Virus record (IMG/VR): IMGVR_UViG_3300022862_000009
Coordinates: 1 to 43,603 of that record
DNA length: 43,603 nucleotides
Strand: one strand, 5' to 3'
DNA from: a virus
Taxonomy: Duplodnaviria; Caudoviricetes
The notes beneath the pieces are model-generated. The model saw only the letters and a program-made list of their open reading frames with translations. It was not told the DNA's origin and searched no databases. Both the position numbers and the translations under genes were made by a program. Below, piece after piece: positions 3,883 through 16,246 of the stretch (within the stretch, counting starts at the first letter, position 1; each line of letters begins with the position of its first letter).

Positions 3883-4418
3883 ACAGCCTCCCTCGTTACC
3901 AGATCATGGGCATCCACAACGGTCATGCCGAGCTTCTCGGCGATCAGCACTTCCAGGCGGGCGCCTTGCGACTTCTCCCAGCCCGGCAGCAGGGCGATCA
4001 CACCGCACAGCCCCAGGCGTGTCAGGTCGTAGGCCATGTAGTCGGACCACTGGGCACCCTCGACGATGCCGTGGTCTGCTGGGTTCTCGACTTCGTAGCC
4101 CTGGGCGCGCAGCTGGCCGGCCACGGCGTTGAAGGCGGGGTAGTTGAAGTCGGCGATACCCGTCATGGGCCCTGCCACGTAGACGCGGTTGGCGCGGCTT
4201 GCCTGGAGCGTTACGAATGGCTCGCCTGGCTGACTTTTACCGCTGAATGCCCATGCGGTAGGTCCCTGGCACATCTCGCAAGTGAGGTTGCGCGTGATTT
4301 CGTCGATCGCTTCGCGATCAAGCTTCTTGCCGTAGTGGTTGACGAGCTCGTTGGCGATCGTAAATACCATAGTGCCGAGTCGTGTGGATTGCGGATCTTG
4401 GTTCTCTTTAGTGCGCAT
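3879..4418 (-). CDS. DUF4406-like (nucleoside deoxyribosyltransferase-fold) domain protein
   Basis: VYVAGPMTG..FNYPAF..NPA..LPGWEKSQGARLE motif; ATG 4418 with AAGGA SD. Confidence 0.85.
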   Translation of the reverse strand: MRTKENQDPQSTRLGTMVFTIANELVNHYGKKLDREAIDEITRNLTCEMCQGPTAWAFSGKSQPGEPFVTLQASRANRVYVAGPMTGIADFNYPAFNAVAGQLRAQGYEVENPADHGIVEGAQWSDYMAYDLTRLGLCGVIALLPGWEKSQGARLEVLIAEKLGMTVVDAHDLVTREAV

Positions 4419-4464
4419 GGGGAGTCCTTGCCGGGCCATGCCCGGACGGTTAAGGGTGGGGAGT

Positions 4465-5244
4465 TCAGGCGCTTGCGGATAGGGCGAGGGTTTCGTCGCC
4501 GCCGCGCGCGAGGCCGGTGTGCAACTCCACCTTTTGACCGGCGAGCATCCCGGCGATCTGGGCGTTCATATCCAGCTCGACGCTTTTGCTTTTCCGGGAC
4601 TCTCTGATGTCTTGGGTGGCAAGGTATTCACTGATCAGCGCCTTGTCCTGCGCCTGAACCGCGATGAGGTCTTGGCCGGTGCCAAGCTGGCCGAGTGGAT
4701 CATCATCTGCTTGAGGCACAAGCGCTTTCAGCTTCGACTGAACTTCCCAGACCCACGCCAACGCGAAATGATCACCTGCGGTCTCTGCCGAATATTGACT
4801 GCGATGGATGCCAGATCTGACTCCTGAACAGTAGGCCTTGCGGGCTTGCGTGAGCTTGGTGTGCAGAGCCTCATACGCGTACAGGGCGATGTTCTGGGCT
4901 GGGGAAACGCCAACGAATGTCGCACACTCAATGACTTGGCCCTTCGCGGAACACCACGTTCTGCGCCGCAGAGTGGTGCAGCTGAATGCGTCTGCTACAG
5001 CAATGCTCAGTTGCTGATCCCATGCTGGTCGACGCTTGGTGCGGAACAGGGACGATTCAGCTTCACCGACGTCGCTCAACTTCACATCGATTTCGGTCAG
5101 GCGATACTCGCGCATCAATGCCTGGGCCTGCCGAAGCGCCGTTGCAGCTTCGTTTTCGTTAGCGCTCTGCGCCAGGGCCAGGCAGTGCTTGATCTTGCGG
5201 ATCGCCCGCTCGAGTTTCTTTTCGTCGATCTGTTGTGCGGACAT
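4465..5244 (-). CDS. DUF2786-domain protein
   Basis: N-terminal KIKHCLALAQSANENEAATALRQAQALMREY signature. Confidence 0.85.
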   Translation of the reverse strand: MSAQQIDEKKLERAIRKIKHCLALAQSANENEAATALRQAQALMREYRLTEIDVKLSDVGEAESSLFRTKRRPAWDQQLSIAVADAFSCTTLRRRTWCSAKGQVIECATFVGVSPAQNIALYAYEALHTKLTQARKAYCSGVRSGIHRSQYSAETAGDHFALAWVWEVQSKLKALVPQADDDPLGQLGTGQDLIAVQAQDKALISEYLATQDIRESRKSKSVELDMNAQIAGMLAGQKVELHTGLARGGDETLALSASA

Positions 5245-5279
5245 AGGGGATCCTCGCTGGCTGGCGTGATTCGTTGATA

Positions 5280-5316
5280 TGGGGTATTACGGGTGACCGG
5301 CATGGAGCCGGATCAA
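5280..5316 (+). repeat. Repeat A copy 1 (37 bp): -10-like TATTAC plus leader hairpin, followed by SD
   Basis: TGGGGTATTACGGGTGACCGGCATGGAGCCGGATCAA, identical at 6367-6403. Confidence 0.95.
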
Positions 5317-5328
5317 AGGAGAATTGAT

Positions 5329-5571
5329 ATGGCTTATTGGGACTCTTACGGCTATCCAGAGAATGAACCGAAAGTCTGGATCACGTTCGGCACGCAGAAG
5401 GACGGTCCGCCACAAGTAGCATTCCTCGGGCCGATTCGTCAGCCGGAGGGCGATAGCACGAAGGCTGTTGAGTACTACCAGGAAGTTGCAGGCCGCTGGA
5501 CTGATGAGCGTGCCGCACATGTCGATCTAAATAAAATCGCTAAAGATCTCATCGAGCATAAGCGTCTTTAG
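5329..5571 (+). CDS. Hypothetical cargo protein (80 aa)
   Basis: AAGGAG SD directly after repeat A; MAYWDSYGYPENEP... Confidence 0.75.
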   Translation: MAYWDSYGYPENEPKVWITFGTQKDGPPQVAFLGPIRQPEGDSTKAVEYYQEVAGRWTDERAAHVDLNKIAKDLIEHKRL

Positions 5572-5589
5572 CGGAAGCTTCCTATAGGA

Positions 5590-6307
5590 TCAGGCGTCGG
5601 CGCTGGCGGCTTCTTTGATCGCCATAATGGCGTTTGCGGCGTGGCGCACATAATAAAGGCGAGCCATCAGATTTGGGCACGGCTTGCTGATCGTCGATTC
5701 CCAAAGGTTGCTTCCACCAATCAGTTCTTCGTGCTCACGCAGGAAGTCGTAGGCCAGCACCACCTCGCTGTCGCGGCCATCGGCGAAGGTCTCAACCTCC
5801 TCAATTACGTCAGCCAGTTCGGCGAAAGGAAGGCGCTCGTCTTCTGTCTCATCGCGCTCGCGCAGCCATTCAGCGAGTTGTTCAGCCTGCTCCAGGGTGG
5901 CGCCCTTGTTCGGGATGTCCGCGATCCATTCCGGGACCTCATCATCCGGCAATTCGTAATCGATCCTTCCGGCGATGCATTCGCACACCGTGTCACGGAT
6001 AGTGCCGAAGTCGATCACCACCCGCTTGATGTCGCCTTCCAACTTTTCATGTACATACCCATCGCTCTGATGGCGCAAGAAGTTGATGCCGTAGCTGGAG
6101 CCGACGTGGAACACGAGAGGACCGATATCACCCATCATGCTCATGCCGAAGCGCGTAACACAGATGTCGAACCCATAGCAGCTGCTGCCTGGCCGTGCGC
6201 AACGCCACAACTCGACGCCGTTTTCGTTCACCAGCTGCGTGTATTGGTGTTGGTGCCAGTTCTTCTGCGACTCGGGCGGTGAGCGCCGCGCGTTCTTGCT
6301 CTCTCAT
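5590..6307 (-). pseudogene. Hypothetical phage protein with an apparent 1-nt frameshift near the 5' end
   Basis: The SD-backed ATG at 6307 (GGAGATAATCC-ATG) is out of frame with the long 5590-6303 reading frame. Confidence 0.6.
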
Positions 6308-6403
6308 GGATTATCTCCAGTCAGCCGCCGCCCTCCGGTGGCCGGTGGTGGCAATTTGGTTTGGGTTGGGGTATTACGGGTGACCGGCATGGAGCCGGAT
6401 CAA
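6303..6403. repeat. Hybrid junction: repeat B copy 1 (6303-6376) overlapping repeat A copy 2 (6367-6403)
   Basis: Direct comparison with 7164-7236 and 5280-5316. Confidence 0.95.
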
Positions 6404-6415
6404 GGAGAGAAGCAG

Positions 6416-6607
6416 ATGGGTATCGAAGAAATGCAGCACGACGAATTCAAGCCAACCTGCCCAAAGTGCGGGGGTATCGAATTCGCAGCCGTTTATAACC
6501 GCTATGTGGCCCGAACCTCCCAACCGATCAGCATGATTATCTGCGCTGATTTGAAGTGTCAGGCCGTTGCAGGTGTGCTGCCTACTGCTGAAGTTTTTCC
6601 CGAGTAA
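6416..6607 (+). CDS. Small Zn-ribbon cargo protein (63 aa)
   Basis: CPKCGG...CADLKC; AAGGAG SD after repeat A. Confidence 0.8.
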   Translation: MGIEEMQHDEFKPTCPKCGGIEFAAVYNRYVARTSQPISMIICADLKCQAVAGVLPTAEVFPE

Positions 6608-7168
6608 CTACGCCGCCTTGAGCTGTCCCAGGACTGTCTGGCGTGCCGCTTCAAATTCGCTGCCGAGGATCTCGGCGGCGCCTTCGATCTTCTCGTTTCC
6701 ATCCTCAAGGCGGATGCCGAGATTCAGGTACACGACGCCATCAAGCTCGAAGAACACACCACCGCACATCCACAGGGCGCCTGGGTTCAGGCCGATCGCC
6801 TCCCAGGCTTCGTCCATATCGATGCTGGCAGGGCAATGTTCCTTCCAGAGAGCCGACAGGCGCTCATGCTCGGCGACCTGGGAGGCCCGCGCTTCCTTTG
6901 ACGTTCCTTTCGCAGGCTTGGCGCTGGAGCGTAGCGCTCGGTAACCGTACTGGTCCGGACGGCACCAGTGCACATCCAGATCACGGCTTGCGCTGAGCTT
7001 CACGCCGCCAACGTAGCTGCGGCTGCCGGAGCGCATTGGCGAAGTCTGGCCGCCGAACACCTGGCCCAGCTTGGCGCGCTGCGCGTTCCAGGCGGCTCGC
7101 TTGGTGTCCCAGGCTTTCACCGCAGCAACCACGGCAGGGGCGGTGGTCTTGTACATATAGTTGCTCAT
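6608..7168 (-). CDS. Hypothetical phage protein (186 aa)
   Basis: GGAG SD inside repeat B; stop codon abuts the stop of the convergent gene. Confidence 0.85.
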   Translation of the reverse strand: MSNYMYKTTAPAVVAAVKAWDTKRAAWNAQRAKLGQVFGGQTSPMRSGSRSYVGGVKLSASRDLDVHWCRPDQYGYRALRSSAKPAKGTSKEARASQVAEHERLSALWKEHCPASIDMDEAWEAIGLNPGALWMCGGVFFELDGVVYLNLGIRLEDGNEKIEGAAEILGSEFEAARQTVLGQLKAA

Positions 7169-7236
7169 GGATTATCTCCAGTCAGGGGCCGCCCTCCGTG
7201 GTCGGTGGTGGCAATTTGGTTTTTTTTGGCGTATTA
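7164..7236. repeat. Repeat B copy 2 (about 73 bp, imperfect)
   Basis: CTCATGGATTATCTCCAGTCAG..GCCGCCCTCCG..CGGTGGTGGCAATTTGGTT..GTATTA shared with 6303-6376. Confidence 0.93.
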
Positions 7237-7273
7237 AAGATGTTCGGAATTCCTCCGAATTATGGAGAGTGCT

Positions 7274-7624
7274 ATGCCTCCCTTGGTTTTTGGAAACAAT
7301 ATCTATGGCGCAAAGGTTGGGGTGCAGGCTCCAGCGAACGCTGATGTAGACATTATCAATAACAACTTTCACGGCGTAGAAGTGGCTGTTAACTTTAAAG
7401 AGCCGATCACTCTAGAGATGCTTGGCATTCCAATAGGTGCTCCCTCCGACCAGGTATCAGAATTAGTTAGGGAGTTCAGAAAAACACCAGATGCTTCGGT
7501 TGAGCAGGCTACTGCAATTGTTAACGCCTCAAGGCTGGGGCAATGGTTAGGAAACGCCGAAAAAGTTGCCAAGGTTGCTAACAGCCTTGTCGCCTTGGTC
7601 AAAGCTGGGCAAGATTTATTCTAG
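7274..7624 (+). CDS. Hypothetical cargo protein, AT-richer than its flanks
   Basis: GGAG SD preceded by the hairpin TTCGGAATTCCTCCGAA; MPPLVFGNNIYG... Confidence 0.8.
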   Translation: MPPLVFGNNIYGAKVGVQAPANADVDIINNNFHGVEVAVNFKEPITLEMLGIPIGAPSDQVSELVREFRKTPDASVEQATAIVNASRLGQWLGNAEKVAKVANSLVALVKAGQDLF

Positions 7625-7659
7625 TGTCCTATGGTCTATGGGGGATTAATCAGGACTGC

Positions 7660-8025
7660 TTACTCGGGCCTCTCGATTTCGTCGTCAGGCTCTGTCAGTT
7701 CGTCATCGAGCGACTTGAGGCACGCTGCCCATATGAGTCGCGACACTTTTTCGGTGACAATAAAAGGTGTCGTGACACACTTGAGCATCTGCGCCGCGGT
7801 GTCGAAGTCGGCGGCGATCACGTTGAGTAGCAGGTTCTGGAACACTTCCTGCTGGTTGTTGAAGCCGTGCTGCTTCATCAGGCGCTTGAGGTCGGCCTTG
7901 AACACGCCGGCCACCTCAACCGTAAACTTCTCGACGCCCAATGCAGCGTTCTTTTCGTTCGCCTTTTCGCGCTTGCGGCGTTGCTTCAGGGCTTCCGCCG
8001 TTGGCTCCTGCTGTTCCTCGGCCAT
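7660..8025 (-). CDS. Hypothetical protein, possibly ribbon-helix-helix DNA-binding
   Basis: KQRRKREK basic tract, then a beta-alpha-alpha pattern; GAGGT SD. Confidence 0.8.
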   Translation of the reverse strand: MAEEQQEPTAEALKQRRKREKANEKNAALGVEKFTVEVAGVFKADLKRLMKQHGFNNQQEVFQNLLLNVIAADFDTAAQMLKCVTTPFIVTEKVSRLIWAACLKSLDDELTEPDDEIERPE

Positions 8026-8110
8026 GGCCTACCTCTTCGATTTCGTGTGCTGGCAAATCAAGCCATGCCTGCCGCCGGCGCTGTCGCAACTGGTTGTTGA
8101 TGCGCTTCAT
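7916..8110 (-). CDS. Small basic hypothetical protein (MKRINNQLRQRRRQAW...)
   Basis: ATGA overlap with the upstream stop at 8107; the 3' part overlaps the next gene. Confidence 0.4.
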   Translation of the reverse strand: MKRINNQLRQRRRQAWLDLPAHEIEEVGHGRGTAGANGGSPEATPQARKGERKERCIGRREVYG

Positions 8111-8421
8111 TGGGTGTCGGCGAACTTGAAGCCGTTCTCCTGGGCGATCAGCGTCACGCGCTTGACGTGCATGCCCAGGTTCTTTGCGGCCACGCTGGCT
8201 ACGACGCCCTTTGCGGCTTCGGCGCGCACGGCCGGTGCCAGCTTGTCGCGTTCTTTGCGAAGGCGTTCGTGGTGGGCGGTGGTGCCGTTGAAAGGCCCGT
8301 CTACTCCGACGCCGCTCGGGATGACCTGTACTGACTTGCCGGCGCCGAAGTAAGCGTCCAGCTGCTGGTTCAGGTTGTCGATGATCGAGTGGCGCGGGTT
8401 GGGCATAGGCACGCCGATCAT
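8107..8421 (-). CDS. Hypothetical protein with a C-terminal HTH-like segment
   Basis: ASVAAKNLGMHVKRVTLIAQENGF; ATGA coupling at 8418-8421. Confidence 0.8.
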   Translation of the reverse strand: MIGVPMPNPRHSIIDNLNQQLDAYFGAGKSVQVIPSGVGVDGPFNGTTAHHERLRKERDKLAPAVRAEAAKGVVASVAAKNLGMHVKRVTLIAQENGFKFADTQ

Positions 8422-8699
8422 TGCGCACCGCCCGACAGCGTTACCTTCACGCCGTCCGCACGGCATTCCAGGGCCTGGGCGAAGTTGCTGGCTTCCTTCC
8501 AGGTCCAGCGGAAGCCCTTCACCTTGCCGGTGGCGAGCTCCACGATGTGGTAAGCATTGCCGGCGTTCTTGATCTGGAATCGAATCTTTTGCACGGGCTG
8601 CTCCTTGCCGATCAGGGCGTAGAAGTCGGCAGTGGCGATGCGGGAGCGAACGTGCAGGGCCGCAACCCCGTCGACGCGCTGTTTGATTGATGGGTGCAT
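8418..8699 (-). CDS. Hypothetical phage protein
   Basis: 93-aa ORF with GAGGT SD. Confidence 0.8.
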   Translation of the reverse strand: MHPSIKQRVDGVAALHVRSRIATADFYALIGKEQPVQKIRFQIKNAGNAYHIVELATGKVKGFRWTWKEASNFAQALECRADGVKVTLSGGAQ

Positions 8700-8801
8700 G
8701 GTGGATACCTCTGTGGAGTTGCGTTTATTCGTCAGCAGCCTGACCGCCTGGTGGGTGCCGGTGGGCCCAGGGGAGGGTGCTGACGAATAAAGGCGAGCCG
8801 T

Positions 8802-8829
8802 AAAAAAGCCCAGAAGGGACTGGGCTTTT
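8802..8829. terminator. Intrinsic terminator, probably bidirectional
   Basis: AAAAAAGCCCAG-AAGGGA-CTGGGCTTTT. Confidence 0.8.
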
Positions 8830-9035
8830 CGTTGCGTTACATAGACCTCCCTATGTCACGCAGGGGGGGGCGGTCGAGCGCCTTGGTTTGAAGTTCACAT
8901 GGCTGCCAATCCTCCGCGTTGAATGATCTGAAAAGACGTTGGCCAGCGGCCGGCTCACCACTGCCCAGGTGACGGGCTTTGCGCTAGGCTGAGTGCTCTC
9001 ACACAACACAGCCTGCAAAGGAGGGCGAACTTGCC

Positions 9036-9266
9036 ATGCGCAAATTCAAATTGCTGTACCTGTACGACGCTGATGACTCATGCCCCAAGTACTACGAAAG
9101 TGATGACCCAATAAAAGTTGGTGACGCAATTCGCGTGGGGAACGGTTTTTGGCACGGTGTTACGGACATTCGAATTCTGAAGACAGATATTCGGCTAACT
9201 CTTTCGAAATCGTCTCAATCTGCGGAGGAGGCAAAGCTTGTAATGAAGCAGCTATCGTCCGGCTGA
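9036..9266 (+). CDS. Hypothetical cargo protein (76 aa)
   Basis: AAGGAGGG SD; plausible small beta-rich protein. Confidence 0.65.
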   Translation: MRKFKLLYLYDADDSCPKYYESDDPIKVGDAIRVGNGFWHGVTDIRILKTDIRLTLSKSSQSAEEAKLVMKQLSSG

Positions 9267-9447
9267 GAACAATCGTTGCAAACTTCAAACAGCTTTGTTT
9301 GGCGATATCTTGGCTTGGGTGCATCAGTCTAAGTTTTGTCCGTAGCCCTGGATCGCCCTGGCAAGCCAGCGTCATGAGTGCCGCCTCTATGCGGGCTTGC
9401 AGTGAAGGCTCTTCTACTTTCGGTAGATCTTCAGCGACGCTTTTCAT
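9160..9447 (-). CDS. Hypothetical protein; 3' end overlaps the convergent gene
   Basis: GAGGATAGGA SD before ATG 9447, directly downstream of a conserved 35-nt hairpin. Confidence 0.45.
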   Translation of the reverse strand: MKSVAEDLPKVEEPSLQARIEAALMTLACQGDPGLRTKLRLMHPSQDIAKQSCLKFATIVLSRTIAASLQALPPPQIETISKELAEYLSSEFECP

Positions 9448-9510
9448 ATTCCTATCCTCTCTGTCATCCCAAAGCACTCTCGCGAGAAGGTGCTTCAGTG
9501 ATGCCGTGGT

Positions 9511-9894
9511 TTAGGCGGTGAGGCTTGGCCGTTCCGCCTGGCGCAGCACTCGCACCTGGGCCGTACGACGTTCCGGCACCCGGCGGTCACGGCGCATGGC
9601 GTCATCGCCGATCATGGCGTGCATGGCGATCAACGCCGCCAGGGCGAAGCACATAGGCGAGATGATCTGTCGGCGCATCGCTTCGGCCACCGCGGCGGTC
9701 TGGCGCGTCACGCCGAGCTTGAACATGGCGCAGGACAGGCGTTTGGCTACCGTGCAGGCCGCCACGTCGAACTGGCGGGCAATCTCTTTGGCCGTCATGC
9801 CCTGGGCAGTGCCGAGCAGGTACTGCACTTCTTTTGGCGCAAGGCCGCGTCCGAGATGACCCTTCCATGTGCCGCTGACGATTGTCGCTTCCAT
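9511..9894 (-). CDS. LuxR-type C-terminal HTH regulator, first gene of the PL operon
   Basis: LAPKEVQYLLGTAQGMTAKEIARQFDVAACTVAKRLSCAMFKLGV; GGGAG SD. Confidence 0.88.
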   Translation of the reverse strand: MEATIVSGTWKGHLGRGLAPKEVQYLLGTAQGMTAKEIARQFDVAACTVAKRLSCAMFKLGVTRQTAAVAEAMRRQIISPMCFALAALIAMHAMIGDDAMRRDRRVPERRTAQVRVLRQAERPSLTA

Positions 9895-10159
9895 CAATGT
9901 GACTCCCGGTTGGTTTCCCAATGCACCCGGCCAACCAGGTGCATCAGTGAAAATTCCCACTGATCCTTCGGCGCTACTGGCGCGGTACAGATCGATTCAA
10001 GTTGTTCTTCCAGCCGCGGGCCTTTCGGCTTGTTCTCCCGCTGGATAACTGTCTTGGCGCTTTACGCTGCACGCCCGGGTCAGTTGCCAACCCTCTGAAC
10101 CGTTGAGGCCGGTTCATCGCTGCCTTCCATCTGGCCGGTTGTTATCCGGCGATAGAGCA

Positions 10160-10203
10160 AATATGTACCAATGGTTCATATTGGTCAAGTACCAAAAGTA
10201 CAT
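10160..10203 (-). promoter_or_regulatory. PL promoter with two 17-bp operators (OL 10163-10179 and 10187-10203)
   Basis: Minus strand TTGACC-17 bp-CATATT; operators ATGTACCAATGGTTCAT and AAGTACCAAAAGTACAT. Confidence 0.85.
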
Positions 10204-10221
10204 AAAAGTTCGGTGGGCAAT

Positions 10222-10249
10222 AAAAAGCCCGCTCAGTGGCGGGCTGTTT
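10222..10249. terminator. Intrinsic terminator closing the immunity-region transcripts
   Basis: AAAAAGCCCGC-TCAGTG-GCGGGCTGTTT. Confidence 0.8.
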
Positions 10250-10264
10250 GAAGGTTGCGATGTG

Positions 10265-10480
10265 TCAGTCCTGATCTTGGGCTTTCAACCTGGCCATCGC
10301 CTGCTTGATGTGTCCGGCGTTCTCGCCGATCGTCTCCAACGCACCTCGCACGTTGCCGCCTGTCTCGGCATTACCTTGGCTTTCGGCGAGCAACGTCAAC
10401 TCCATTAACGCAGCCTCAAGGGCGAGCTGGTTCTCGTAGATTCGTTCAAGCATATCGGGGAGGGAGTAGGGCGCGGGCAT
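10265..10480 (-). CDS. Small helical hypothetical protein
   Basis: GGAG SD; amphipathic helices; flanked by terminators. Confidence 0.8.
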   Translation of the reverse strand: MPAPYSLPDMLERIYENQLALEAALMELTLLAESQGNAETGGNVRGALETIGENAGHIKQAMARLKAQDQD

Positions 10481-10531
10481 TGAGCGGCTCCAAGAATGGG
10501 AGCAGGAAAGGATAGCAGCTAGGGCAGAAAC

Positions 10532-10558
10532 AAGAAGCCCGGCGCTGGGCCGGGCTTA
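10532..10558 (-). terminator. Intrinsic terminator after the cI-downstream gene pair
   Basis: AAGAAGCCCGGC-GCTGG-GCCGGGCTT. Confidence 0.75.
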
Positions 10559-10573
10559 ATTAACTCATATCAA

Positions 10574-10894
10574 TTATGCGCCTATCGATTTCAGGATCGG
10601 CGCCAAGTACTGCTGAACCATCCACCATATGCCGCCGATCATCGAGCCGCCTACAGCCAGCAGCCCGAAGAGCGCCCACGAAGCGAGCTGGCCTTTAGTG
10701 ACCATATTCTTTTCGATGTGATCAAGGCGAGTCTCAATCTTTCCAAGCGAAACCTTTACGTCGGTCATTCCGCTTTCAAGTGCTCGCAACCTACCGTCCA
10801 TGTCACCTCCGCCACCACTACTATCACCTTTCCATGATGGATGACCGGAGATAACTCTGCCAGAAGAATCTTCGATGAGCGGGGCGTTATTCAC
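10574..10894 (-). CDS. Coiled-coil plus C-terminal TM protein (rex-position accessory gene); alternative ATG at 10801
   Basis: GTG 10894 with GGAGAAGG SD, overlapping the upstream stop; GGGGDMDGRLRALE coiled coil; hydrophobic C-terminus. Confidence 0.75.
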   Translation of the reverse strand: MNNAPLIEDSSGRVISGHPSWKGDSSGGGGDMDGRLRALESGMTDVKVSLGKIETRLDHIEKNMVTKGQLASWALFGLLAVGGSMIGGIWWMVQQYLAPILKSIGA

Positions 10895-11225
10895 TTTTCC
10901 TTCTCCGCTCTTCCGCATGCGAAATCATACGGCCAAGTGTATCGAGAAGATCCTTGGCTACGTTCAGCGGCATTGCAATCGATGCGACATCCAGCCTGAA
11001 TGCCTCGACCTGGCCAGGCTCTGTGTTGGGTACACCGTTTTCGATTACAAAATTGGTGCTTTTCAGATTTATAGAGTTGCGGCCGAATGTAACGTGGATT
11101 GCTTCCTCGCCGTTCCAAGACATAGCGAAGGCGCTGAACTGGTCGACTTGCTCATCAACAAAAGATGTCGACCTGACGTGCTGCAGCGATGATGTGGTGA
11201 CTTTCTCGCTCACTTCTTTCTCCAT
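10887..11225 (-). CDS. Hypothetical soluble protein directly downstream of cI (rex-position accessory gene)
   Basis: Starts 19 bp after the cI stop; beta-rich, ending in VASIAMPLNVAKDLLDTL helix (DUF3467-like pattern). Confidence 0.75.
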   Translation of the reverse strand: MEKEVSEKVTTSSLQHVRSTSFVDEQVDQFSAFAMSWNGEEAIHVTFGRNSINLKSTNFVIENGVPNTEPGQVEAFRLDVASIAMPLNVAKDLLDTLGRMISHAEERRRKSE

Positions 11226-11244
11226 TTTTTGTGAACTATCGTTG

Positions 11245-11979
11245 CTACAGCATTCCGCCGCGCCAAACCACGCGCCCGATGATGCGAACTTCGTTTATCT
11301 CCCCATCACGCAGCGTCTCGTCGCCGTAGCGCGCTTTGTCCGGGTTGTCGCTTCGAATGATCCAGCCGTCGAAGTCGGACTTCACCAGGCGCTTCACGAT
11401 CGTGCCTTTCGATTCGCTCTGCAGCGCAAATATCTGGCCGTCCTTCGGTTCGATTTTCGATTCATCGATCAGCAGCACGTCACCATCGTTGATGGTCGGT
11501 TCCATGCTGTGGCCGTTGGCGTAAATCACGTCGAGGTTCCGCTGATTTAGGAGATTGGCTCGCAACCACTCCGACTTAAATGCCATGACGCCACGGATCT
11601 CGACATGCGAGTTGTCTTCGCCATCTCCGGTTGATCCGCGAGCGGTCAGCTGCAACACGCCGGTGTAGCTCTTGTCTTCGGCAAGATCAAAGCTTCTAGG
11701 TGGGACGCGCTCATCAGCAGTAGTGACTGCTGTCTCGCGCATCTCGCCCCGCCCGTATTCAAGCCATTCGACGCGGACTGATAGCGCATTTGCAAGCGCA
11801 AGCATCTTTGCTCCGCCGGGCATCGACTCACCGTTGAGCCACTTGCTGCAAGCTTTCGGTGTGACCTTCGCTATTTTCGCGAGACGAACACCGGCCCCCC
11901 ACTCAGGTATGCCCGCTTCCGCCAAGGCTTTCTTGAGTCGAGCGATAAAAGCGAACCGAATTTCGTCTATTTGAACCAT
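11245..11979 (-). CDS. cI: CI-like repressor (HTH plus S24 autocleavage peptidase)
   Basis: N-terminal HTH (ACSKWLNGESMP); GHSMEPTINDGD, IVKRL and IIGRVVWRG S24 motifs; divergent from cro. Confidence 0.95.
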   Translation of the reverse strand: MVQIDEIRFAFIARLKKALAEAGIPEWGAGVRLAKIAKVTPKACSKWLNGESMPGGAKMLALANALSVRVEWLEYGRGEMRETAVTTADERVPPRSFDLAEDKSYTGVLQLTARGSTGDGEDNSHVEIRGVMAFKSEWLRANLLNQRNLDVIYANGHSMEPTINDGDVLLIDESKIEPKDGQIFALQSESKGTIVKRLVKSDFDGWIIRSDNPDKARYGDETLRDGEINEVRIIGRVVWRGGML

Positions 11980-12044
11980 GGGTTCATATTCTCATGAGCT
12001 TGCATGTACTTTCAGTTCCGACTTAAGATGTACCGTAAGTTCAT
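11971..12044. promoter_or_regulatory. OR region: three 17-bp operators (11971-11987, 12004-12020, 12028-12044) and PR
   Basis: TTGAACCATGGGTTCAT, ATGTACTTTCAGTTCCG and ATGTACCGTAAGTTCAT match the OL sites; TTGCAT(12000)-18 bp-TAAGAT(12024). Confidence 0.85.
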
Positions 12045-12062
12045 ATTTGAATCGGAGGCCAC

Positions 12063-12311
12063 ATGCGGCCGCTCAAGAAAACGATCGACGACGCTGGCGG
12101 TGTTCCGACGGTTGCTCAGGCCTGCGGGAAGACTCCGCGGGCTATTTACAAGTGGCTTGCAGCCGATGCGTTGCCGCGCACTGAGTACACCGGCGAGACG
12201 AAGTACGCCAAGAAGATTTGCGAGCTGGCCACCGCAAGAGGGAAGCCGTTCGACACGGCTTGGCTGCTTTCCGAAGCGCACCCGAACAAGCCGGTTGTTG
12301 GCGCCTTGTGA
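12063..12311 (+). CDS. cro: Cro-like repressor
   Basis: AGGVPTVAQACGKTPRAIYKW HTH; GGAGG SD; divergent from cI. Confidence 0.92.
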   Translation: MRPLKKTIDDAGGVPTVAQACGKTPRAIYKWLAADALPRTEYTGETKYAKKICELATARGKPFDTAWLLSEAHPNKPVVGAL

Positions 12312-12360
12312 GTTTTGATTTTCCGCTCAATACGAGTTGGTAAAAAGTGATTTGGATTAG

Positions 12361-12376
12361 CTGTTAATTCATCCAG
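12361..12376. promoter_or_regulatory. Candidate LexA (SOS) box downstream of cro
   Basis: CTGTTAATTCATCCAG fits CTG-N10-CAG with an AT-rich core. Confidence 0.55.
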
Positions 12377-12394
12377 TACCAAAATCGCAGACAT

Positions 12395-12442
12395 AAAAAA
12401 ACCGCCTGGCAGGGCGGTCCTTTAAACAGCAATAAAACTTGT
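12395..12442 (-). ncRNA. Candidate antisense small RNA of about 48 nt (OOP/Sar-like)
   Basis: Minus-strand promoter TTGCCA(12477-12472)-17 bp-CATAAT(12454-12449) and terminator ACCGCC-N6-GGCGG followed by 7 U. Confidence 0.6.
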
Positions 12443-14532: not shown

Positions 14533-14969
14533 AGTCAATGAATCCGTCTGCCGTGAAGCCTTTCACCCCTAAGCCGGCGCGGGCCAAGTCGATCGATCGT
14601 GAGGGCCTGGAGCAGGCAGCCTTGATCAAAGAAATCAGCCTGCGCTATCCGGCGGCAGCCAAGCTGATCTACCACGTCCCGAACGGTGGGCACCGGCACA
14701 AGCTGGTGGCGATCAAGCTGAAAGAGCAGGGCGTGAAGGCTGGCGTTCCTGACCTGGTCCTGCCAATGGCGCGCGGCGGCTACTTCGGGCTGTACATCGA
14801 ATTCAAGGCTCGGGCGCCGTATGACGCCGCCGTCTCACCGGCCCAGGACGCATACCTGCAGGCGCTGACCGATCAGGGTTACCTGGCCATCGTTTGCCGT
14901 GGGCACGTCGACGCCATTGAGGCCATCAGGGCCTACCTACTTCAACCACAGACGAGGGCTGCTGCATGA
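14529..14969 (+). CDS. VRR-NUC domain nuclease (putative resolvase)
   Basis: HVPNGG...GVKAGVPDL...LYIEFK...SPAQ PD-(D/E)xK motif. Confidence 0.92.
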   Translation: MKSMNPSAVKPFTPKPARAKSIDREGLEQAALIKEISLRYPAAAKLIYHVPNGGHRHKLVAIKLKEQGVKAGVPDLVLPMARGGYFGLYIEFKARAPYDAAVSPAQDAYLQALTDQGYLAIVCRGHVDAIEAIRAYLLQPQTRAAA

Positions 14970-16246
14970 CGACTGCTGCCGTGAAGATCACCGATGCCGA
15001 AATCAAGCGCCAGGCCTACAGTGATGCGCTCGTTCTGCGCGACACGGACAACCGTGGCCTTTACCTGCGCTTCACCAAGGCCCGTGACCGAGCCTCCTGG
15101 TATTTGGTCACCAAGAGGAAATGGAATCTGATCGGCAGTTACCCCGACCTAAACGCCAAGCAGGTGGTCGCAGCGCTCCCGGCGATTCGCCTGCGTCTGG
15201 AGGCGGGCGAGGGCACCAGCCTGTCGAAGTGGGCCACCGTCGGCGAGCTGCTGTCCTGGTACGCAGAGCGCATGGCCCGCGACCGCAATCTGTCGAGCAA
15301 GCGCAAGAAGACCGGCGCCTCGGCGATCAAGTGCCACCTGATCCCGCGCCTGGGCGAGTTGCCGTTGACCAGCGTCGACAAAGCCACGCTCGACAGCCAG
15401 CTGATGTGGCCACTCCAGGAGACGCTGTCCATCGACTACGTGCGCCTGGTGTTCCAGCTGCTGGCACTGGCGTTTCGCCAAGCATTCAAGCTTGGGTTGA
15501 TCGCTTCCAACCCGATGACCAGCATCAAATTCAGCGACTTCTCCAAGGCCAAGGTCGGGATCAAGCCTTCCAGGCTGCGCGGCGTCCAGTTGCCTGAGCT
15601 GCTTGAACAGTTGCTGACCGTCGTCATGTTCTATCCGGCGGAGGGCATGCTGGCCCTGATGATGCTCTGCCATGGCACCCGCATCGGTGAGACGCGGCAA
15701 GCGCGCTGGTCCCACGTCAGCCTGGCAGAGCGCGAGTGGTTCATTCCGGCCGAGAACACCAAGACCGGCGTCGAGCATCACCTCCCACTCACCGACCAAG
15801 TGCGCAAGCTGTTGATCCGTTACCGCGAGGTCCAGCAGGCTCGTGGGTACGAAGGTCAGTTCCTGTTCCCGTCCCGCAATGGCACCGCGTTGAGTGAGGG
15901 GCAGGCCAGTGCCGTATTCGCCAAGCTTGGGGGTGGTGAGTGGACCAGCCACGACCTGCGCAAGGTGGCTCGCACAGGCTGGGCAGATATCGGCATCGAC
16001 CACCTGATCGGTGAGCTGCTGATCAACCACGCCATGGGTCACAACGTGAAGGTGTACATCCAGTCCGACGTGATGGCCCGCAAGCGTGAAGCCCTAGAGA
16101 AGTGGCACTCGCATCTAGACCAGCGTGGCTTTGCCCTGATTCACGGGTTGACCGGCGTTAGATTCGGAGATTCCGGTAATCCGCTGGAGGCCACGGAATA
16201 TAAGGGCTGCAAGGCCATTCAAGAAACAACCATAGGCGAGGTTTAA
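14966..16246 (+). CDS. Second tyrosine recombinase with an N-terminal arm-binding-like domain
   Basis: GTRIGETR, ENTKTG, HDLRK, INHAMG and KVY give a full catalytic set. Confidence 0.93.
   Translation: MTTAAVKITDAEIKRQAYSDALVLRDTDNRGLYLRFTKARDRASWYLVTKRKWNLIGSYPDLNAKQVVAALPAIRLRLEAGEGTSLSKWATVGELLSWYAERMARDRNLSSKRKKTGASAIKCHLIPRLGELPLTSVDKATLDSQLMWPLQETLSIDYVRLVFQLLALAFRQAFKLGLIASNPMTSIKFSDFSKAKVGIKPSRLRGVQLPELLEQLLTVVMFYPAEGMLALMMLCHGTRIGETRQARWSHVSLAEREWFIPAENTKTGVEHHLPLTDQVRKLLIRYREVQQARGYEGQFLFPSRNGTALSEGQASAVFAKLGGGEWTSHDLRKVARTGWADIGIDHLIGELLINHAMGHNVKVYIQSDVMARKREALEKWHSHLDQRGFALIHGLTGVRFGDSGNPLEATEYKGCKAIQETTIGEV

Follow-up and report, generated by a model that had tools for sequence, protein, structure and literature searches.

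In the T4-type phages RB49 and phi1, promoter, stem-loop and ribosome-site repeats known as PeSL cassettes precede unrelated ORFans; these phages are virulent, the cassettes carry consensus sigma-70 promoters and terminator stem-loops, and mini-circles have been shown (PMC2839356, PMC4122927; here and below, comparisons refer to the available portions of the cited papers). Lambdoid morons are low-GC single genes lying antisense in an operon, probably acquired by illegitimate recombination and likely expressed in the lysogen, that bring their own promoter and terminator and are independent of the conserved flanks (PMC2839356); convergent small RNAs have been described at a moron site (PMC4104026). 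In the noncontiguous operons of Staphylococcus aureus prophages (Tha/Ith), a nested antisense gene of a fixed cognate pair lets lysogenic and lytic expression alternate; the inhibitor protein plays the main part and antisense transcription a minor one (PMC11087260). Tab/anti-Tab of the Pseudomonas phage JBD26 is a fixed cognate pair with an antisense gene in a life-cycle operon and the same alternation (PMC10884400). The antiviral hotspots of P2 and P4 hold systems of 1-5 kb at one site, which were tested with native promoters (PMC9122126). Here we analyzed a 43,603-nucleotide stretch of a Caudoviricetes virus (IMG/VR record IMGVR_UViG_3300022862_000009, hereafter the window), in which three early-left gene junctions carry copies of a linker that was not described in the open-access main texts searched, including the available portions of PMC4936722, PMC10305613 and PMC13182921. 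The linker is a real, widespread element that joins known kinds, namely PeSL-type shuffling, morons and noncontiguous operons. We propose that it probably serves both as a socket of promoter, hairpin and ribosome site from which a guest gene is expressed in the lysogen, and as homology for swapping blocks made of a guest and its partner gene. The linker itself, its filled and empty states, the diversity of its guests and the selection on them, and the exchange of blocks at its edges were demonstrated.

The junction array sits in the minus-strand early-left region, with antisense genes nested in the operon (layout 4465-8025). On the minus strand, the linker leads from one early-left gene into the next; on the plus strand, it presents TGGC and TATT boxes 17 nt apart, a hairpin and a ribosome site, followed by a small guest gene that converges on the next minus-strand gene, its partner. 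Repeat A, identical over 37 bp in its two copies (Table 1), is the longest exact direct repeat of the window, compared to 14-18 bp in 10 shuffles of the window, and the two copies of repeat B match in 66/74 columns, the longest uninterrupted identities being 22 and 20 bp. At every junction, TGGCRW and TATTAM stand 17 nt apart, and a hairpin (-11.4, -11.4 and -7.6 kcal/mol at junctions 1, 2 and 3) and GGAG follow; when the window was searched with a profile of the box, only these junctions scored (34-45 bits; next best 10.7). The initial annotation, made from the window alone, had described these repeats, boxes, hairpins and Shine-Dalgarno sites together with convergent gene pairs whose stops nearly abut (5571/5590, 6607/6608 and 7624/7660) with no evident terminator between them. 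All of this was borne out, the stop coordinates being right and no plus-strand terminator-like site lying there. It had also regarded two junction halves as unique. The right half of junction 3 indeed had no exact match in IMG/VR, whereas the left half of junction 1 proved to be a second common left half of the linker, type C. A search of the window against Rfam gave no family at gathering score. The repeats represent a linker that occurs commonly in prophages of the Pseudomonas fluorescens group.

Scans of IMG/VR supplied 120 of about 130 stretches matching repeat A, 120 of about 140 matching the core of repeat B and 108 matching type C, and a scan of GTDB with repeat A supplied 39 loci. After filtering of 507 raw matches for distinct junctions with flanks of at least 300 nt upstream and at least 900 nt downstream, 287 remained, the three of the window included; L-numbers below label loci from these scans. 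Among the GTDB loci, 38/39 are titled Pseudomonas and one Streptomyces, the latter probably a contamination; 18/21 phage records matching the linker are from Pseudomonas, and a relaxed motif was found in 20/401 genomes of the host family (reversed control, 0). A plus-strand gene fills 246 junctions, 36 are empty and 5 are unclear, with up to three sockets per locus. The named phage phiAH14a represents the empty state, in which the upstream minus-strand gene stops at the TCA that closes the hairpin of A (+28) in 31/36 sites. In three empty sites (L026, L028 and L059), one partner family ends in codons that form AAGGAG, or nearly so, immediately after A, and such an end is a possible origin of the ribosome site of the filled leader. 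Two loci (L348 and L054) hold tandem units of box and guest with no minus-strand gene between them, the last bases of the guest merging into a B left half through six bases common to both.

The filled sites hold 128 guest protein families, 78 of them singletons, with a median length of 94 amino acids, which is the diverse cargo behind a constant leader that had been anticipated. The guest starts 41-44 nt after TATT in 171/246 filled junctions, and a Shine-Dalgarno site with an open reading frame (ORF) of at least 50 amino acids starting 30-50 nt after the box was present at 220/287 junctions compared to 133/4436 random points. Nonsynonymous polymorphism was lower than synonymous (pN < pS) in all 31 testable guest families, guests 1 and 2 of the window included, which points to purifying selection. 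Guests average 49% GC and partners 58%, with the guest lower in 99/103 comparisons, and a terminator-like site lies 3' of the guest in 11/128 families.

Pfam gave a match for 13/128 guest families and none for 115; the named ones are mostly of abortive-infection, HEPN, TIR or alarmone-synthase types. PADLOC matched 9/128, one of them marginally. The matches from the two libraries include putAbiC/AbiP, HEPN_AbiU2, DUF4145, RelA_SpoT and a TIR-system effector, further TIR-TM (E 3e-58), PD-T7-5 (E 2e-116) and two DUF2971/PDC-S31; about 10/128 families are defence-like. An enrichment of defence genes among guests was considered and not borne out by the PADLOC rate: minus-strand proteins match more often (18/70; 11 methyltransferases, 4 SspD/BrxP-like and 3 others), and thus only the kinds of gene differ. 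The three guests of the window had no match in Pfam, PHROGs, PADLOC or NCBIfam and no named Atlas cluster, and the toxin or defence role suggested for them earlier found no toxin or defence match in the family libraries. Relatives of guests 2 and 3 are few (4 and 3 proteins found, the window's own included), and one weak partial locus was found for guest 3.

The family of the 7660-8025 gene is the partner in 119/246 filled junctions, where it faces 73 guest families, and it also occurs at 5 empty sites. Pairs of guest and partner had been taken as units in the initial annotation; the occurrence of empty sites and the many guest families met by a single partner family show that the two are not a fixed cognate pair. 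Accordingly, we hold it very unlikely that each convergent pair is a toxin with its antitoxin, or a defence with its counter-defence, like Tab/anti-Tab or Tha/Ith. Guests do tend to keep their right partner (for guests of at least 70% identity, the right partner is shared in 49/67 pairs, background 0.36, and the left neighbor in 1/28, background 0.04), the commonest partner is predicted to adopt a ribbon-helix-helix fold, which is shared by many antitoxins, and some guests are defence-like. However, besides the promiscuity of this partner family and its empty sites, near-identical guests stand beside different partners (L372/L377, L052/L012), and guest 1 is intact opposite a frameshifted partner: compared to three intact homologues of 238 amino acids, a single additional base near 6254 disrupts the frame of the 5590-6307 gene, which is a pseudogene or reflects an assembly error. 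Among the discordant right-partner calls, some were mis-calls and two were real relocations.

Comparison with other phages revealed that two-gene blocks of the window have been exchanged. The block made of A, guest 2, its partner and B recurs in L364, L390, L391 and L317 with 89-92% identity, each time from 6367, and the block from 5281 recurs in L045. The 5590 gene is present with an empty site in L024 and L139, and the 4465 gene is joined to the 7660 gene via a single unit in L156. Because such blocks begin at A and end in B in other phages, we conclude that two-gene blocks move, with crossovers in the linker; the expectation that units are gained, lost or exchanged at repeat boundaries thus held, five other phages having blocks that start at 6367 or 5281 and one relative having a single unit. 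The exchange would be by homologous recombination, for which A offers 37 identical bases and B only 20-22.

How new guests enter the linker was approached through their joints. In 29 pairs of partner and guest families compared with empty alleles, right joints fell from 11 nt before to 10 nt into the end of the partner, often replacing its last codons, and the gap between guest and partner stop has a median of 9 nt. On the left, an intact AAGGAG followed by a spacer of 5-8 nt was found in 53 families, and nearly all of these spacers differ. These joints are most simply read as products of non-homologous joining on which selection then acted as a filter, the left joint lying at the ribosome site. 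Left joining would occur on the shared AGGAG; no donor was identified. A target-site duplication or att site was considered and rejected, only 8/204 right ends retaining at least 3 bases of A (3.2 expected), and neither a shared motif nor a fixed crossover point was found among the right ends of guests. An integron-like or hairpin-targeted enzyme, be it the 14966-16246 tyrosine recombinase or another factor, might instead insert guests at the hairpin base. Right joints do cluster around that base, guests are ORF-sized with their short gap to the partner's stop, and guest 1 of the window has GGATCA on both sides; the spread of joints over about 20 nt, the near-absence of retained A bases and the lack of a shared right-end site nevertheless make this improbable. 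The recombinase itself, the second tyrosine recombinase of the window and located inside the early-right operon, had been named as a possible mover. Of its 165 phage matches, 147 are in Vibrio phages and 7 in Pseudomonas phages; none of those 7 records is among the 18 Pseudomonas linker records, and one unannotated record has both. The phages phiAH14a, UFJF_PfDIW6, PseuP_222 and the phiPSA1 group match the linker and are not among the 7 recombinase records, which indicates that the 14966-16246 recombinase is not required.

Several features of the leader suggest that the boxes are kept for the plus strand. Across 150 A-type junctions with varied left halves, TGGC is kept in 93-97% at a fixed 17-nt spacing from TGGGGTATT. 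Shortened left halves end 21-33 nt left of TATT in 22/28 cases and retain TGG in 23/28; they lose the minus-strand leader but retain TGG at -23. Where the right half is replaced, as at junction 3, the TATT bases are mostly retained. Among filled B or C junctions, 105/222 retain the whole of A and AGGAG and 56/222 retain at most 6 bases of A. When the largest guest family was searched by protein alone, the leader was present at 12/12 loci; 4 of these were seeds, and 5 distinct leaders occurred among the remaining 8. Readings of the boxes as sigma-54 or sigma-32 sites were rejected by eye because the spacing does not fit the consensus. One leader variant (L393) has CTATAC at the -10 position, which is close to the RpoS consensus and a possible lead on the sigma factor.

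RNA data were also inspected. Ten runs recorded as RNA hold part of the region, and four soil metatranscriptomes were mapped. Contig cover extends over the cI operon (10258-11964, on the deepest contig of run X1) and all three guest regions. Contigs over guest 3 begin at 7261, 7261, 7267 and 7267 in 4/4 runs, just past the junction 3 hairpin, and two of them (7261-8030 and 7261-8047) span guest 3 and its partner, these contigs being unstranded and no sample induced. Uncovered parts of 4400-12400 and differences in depth between contigs were not used for ranking genes. As a weak hint, the RNA contigs fit expression of the guests in the lysogen. The initial annotation had spoken of lysogen-expressed promoters; its lysogen part agrees with the RNA cover of the guests and the lysogen-like, unstranded profile, whereas its promoter part met a -10 box that the consensus scan misses, so that we speak of a putative promoter. 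In the same libraries, cI and two downstream genes (10574-10918 and 10887-11225) lie on one contig, the deepest in X1, and these two are possible lysogen-expressed accessory genes. At 6407-6409 there are loose ends where A and GGAG of other phages run on into other sequences; one of these resembles a relative of guest 1, and another resembles a type IV pilin N-terminus.

The following observations weigh against the proposed socket. A scan with the sigma-70 consensus gave no promoter at any junction, and the sixth base of the -10 box is T in only 8% of 75 non-A leaders. A loss of TAT from empty sites was looked for and not seen (retained in 25/27 empty vs 211/222 filled sites, p = 0.64), and the box may therefore serve another role. 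The junction 3 hairpin, alone among the junction hairpins, scores as terminator-like on the minus strand; the A hairpin has few compensatory changes, and only 19/72 non-A leaders fold better than z -1.5. RNA contig edges at junction 1 (5293 and 5297) could be assembly branches, and those at junction 2 disagree (6313, 6360 and 6417). As contigs, the RNA data give no strand, start or level, carry-over of DNA is possible as there was no silent-stretch control, and the runs may belong to one campaign. The calls of filled and empty sites and of families were automatic, with some mis-calls among them, and neither circles nor exact excision products of the 1087 bp and 861 bp expected in the initial annotation were observed; the RNA contigs, although no test of this, contained no such joints.

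Part of this evidence could be explained if the linker were kept for the minus strand, as leader or for RNA processing or termination, with guests using a weak or accidental promoter, or being ordinary morons where insertion is tolerated, and the shared leader merely hitch-hiking. The persistence of the box in empty sites, the many unrelated early-left genes that end at the same hairpin base, the non-canonical -10 and the minus-strand terminator-like hairpin of junction 3 all accord with such a role. In contrast, the shortened left halves that give up the minus-strand leader and keep TGG at -23, the tandem units of L348 and L054 with no minus-strand gene between them and the constant presence of the leader at loci of a guest family found by protein alone all argue for a plus-strand function, and we consider a linker kept for the minus strand unlikely.

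Under the proposed socket, plus-strand transcription would start about 7 nt after TATTAM in the lysogen, so that the RNA would open with the hairpin. New guests would be captured rarely and without a dedicated recombinase, the left joint forming at the ribosome site or directly behind it (probably on the shared AGGAG) or directly behind TATT, and the right joint no more than about 10 nt from the stop codon of the partner. Homologous recombination at A, B or C would subsequently spread the captured guests. Upon induction, convergent transcription would dampen any guest, as the early-left transcript runs against guests that mostly have no terminator. Given that antisense transcription has only a minor part in the available account of the staphylococcal case (PMC11087260), this last step is the weakest. 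A bolder reading, which we put forward as speculative, is that the linker is a recombinase-free capture socket in which a bare foreign ORF comes under a resident promoter through a joint at its own ribosome site and is immediately expressed in the lysogen; induction might silence it purely by its position against the early-left transcript, or through the adjacent ribbon-helix-helix protein, which would give self-immunity to any guest without a matching inhibitor, and the more than 100 unnamed families could form a library of small anti-phage or host-modifying proteins.

The features of the region are collected in Table 1.

Table 1. Features of the junction array, in window coordinates.
Feature	Position	Strand	Remarks
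Early-left gene, DUF2786 + DUF7168, phrog_421	4465..5244	-	Left neighbor of junction 1
Left half of junction 1 (type C)	5245..5279		Minus-strand ribosome site and leader; plus-strand TGGC box at 5262
Repeat A, copy 1	5280..5316	+	TATT box 5285, hairpin 5294-5315; AGGAG next, 5317-5321
Guest gene 1, 80 amino acids, no known family	5329..5571	+	dN/dS 0.14 vs L045
Early-left gene, partner of guest 1	5590..6307	-	Frameshifted; homologues also at empty site
Repeat B, copy 1	6303..6376		Start and ribosome site of minus-strand gene; TGGC box 6349, TATT box 6372
Repeat A, copy 2	6367..6403	+	Left edge of block common to L364, L390, L391, L317
Guest gene 2, 63 amino acids, four cysteines (CxxC, Cx4C), no known family	6416..6607	+	dN/dS 0.03 vs L364
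Early-left gene, phrog_2314, partner of guest 2	6608..7168	-	Found with 5 guest families, also empty
Repeat B, copy 2	7164..7236		TGGC box 7209, TATT box 7232
Non-A right half of junction 3	7237..7273	+	Hairpin 7243-7259, GGAG 7264-7267
Guest gene 3, 116 amino acids, 47% GC, no known family	7274..7624	+	
Early-left gene, predicted ribbon-helix-helix dimer, commonest convergent partner	7660..8025	-	

The start of guest 3 is most likely at 7274 and not 7262, on the basis of Shine-Dalgarno spacing and an Atlas record that begins at residue 5. For its partner, the predicted model (pLDDT 73, pTM 0.38) matches the ribbon-helix-helix fold over residues 29-75, best with NikR (Z 4.3, root-mean-square deviation 2.5, 43 aligned) and more weakly with PutA, ParG, AmrZ and Arc, all with Z under 5. 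The predicted homodimer scored 0.48 compared to 0.00 for the best control, a mark reached by 20/30 solved pairs and 1/23 single chains, and 96% of contacts agree between runs (pLDDT 67 or more); this score may reflect likeness to solved dimers of the same fold. A comparison of the partner alignment with the sequences of solved structures gave nothing significant. Around the array, the layout is that of a temperate, lambda-like phage, with a cI-type repressor (11245-11979), a Cro-like gene (12063), replication genes, the tyrosine recombinase (14966-16246) and, as read by eye, an integrase-like ORF running off the left end of the window. Two further plus-strand genes, 2144-2557 (TonB_C lipoprotein-like) and 9036-9266 (76 amino acids, no known function), both lack the box, and the intergenic stretch 8700-8830 is structured, with inverted repeats and a terminator-like site, and has no Rfam match at gathering score. 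In L095 and L317, compared with 5230-5260 of the window, an unrelated longer gene has the same first codons (MSAQQ) as the 4465-5244 gene, which suggests that fusion at the C leader also involves minus-strand genes.

Compared to PeSLs, as described in the available portions of those papers, the linker is likewise a repeated element of promoter, stem-loop and Shine-Dalgarno type before unrelated ORFans (128 guest families), offers homology for insertion, deletion and replacement, and occurs in filled and single-element states in relatives. In contrast, it has no consensus sigma-70 site at the junctions and hence no strong promoter of that kind, its phage is temperate, its guests are oriented opposite to the host operon, its bases double as a minus-strand leader and most guests have no terminator. 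The linker thus works like PeSL shuffling but falls outside the PeSLs, as so far described, by promoter type and phage type. As with morons, guests are single, foreign-looking and present or absent (246 filled, 36 empty; lower GC in 99/103); unlike morons, the 128 families use one resident leader that is present also when the site is empty, and only 11/128 are followed by a terminator-like site. Noncontiguous operons and Tab/anti-Tab, on the published text available, share with the linker an antisense gene nested in an operon with its own promoter (putative for the linker), whereas its partner is not cognate and its promoter is a shared, repeated and shuffled part. The likeness to P2/P4 hotspots lies in a small locus flanked by conserved phage genes, whose content has a high turnover and includes genes of the abortive-infection, TIR and HEPN types; the difference lies in guests that are single small genes, mostly without a defence match. 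The convergent small RNAs at a moron site, as far as that account is available, are a looser parallel. A further comparison concerns the guests' size and arrangement. Integron cassettes are promoterless, ORF-sized, expressed from a resident promoter and sometimes tandem; linker guests are ORF-sized, would be expressed from a resident promoter and are sometimes tandem as well, but the linker has no attC-like site, fixed crossover base (joints -11 to +10) or linked integrase.

The moron model does not define how such genes are acquired and wired, and takes each gene to bring its own signals. Here, hundreds of natural alleles present one 60-base element empty, filled, in tandem or shuffled, so that capture, spread and control can each be tested. 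The linker motif can also serve as a search tag for guest genes, 115/128 families of which have no Pfam match. Together, these results extend PeSL-type shuffling to temperate phages and to guests that lie antisense in the operon of their host phage.

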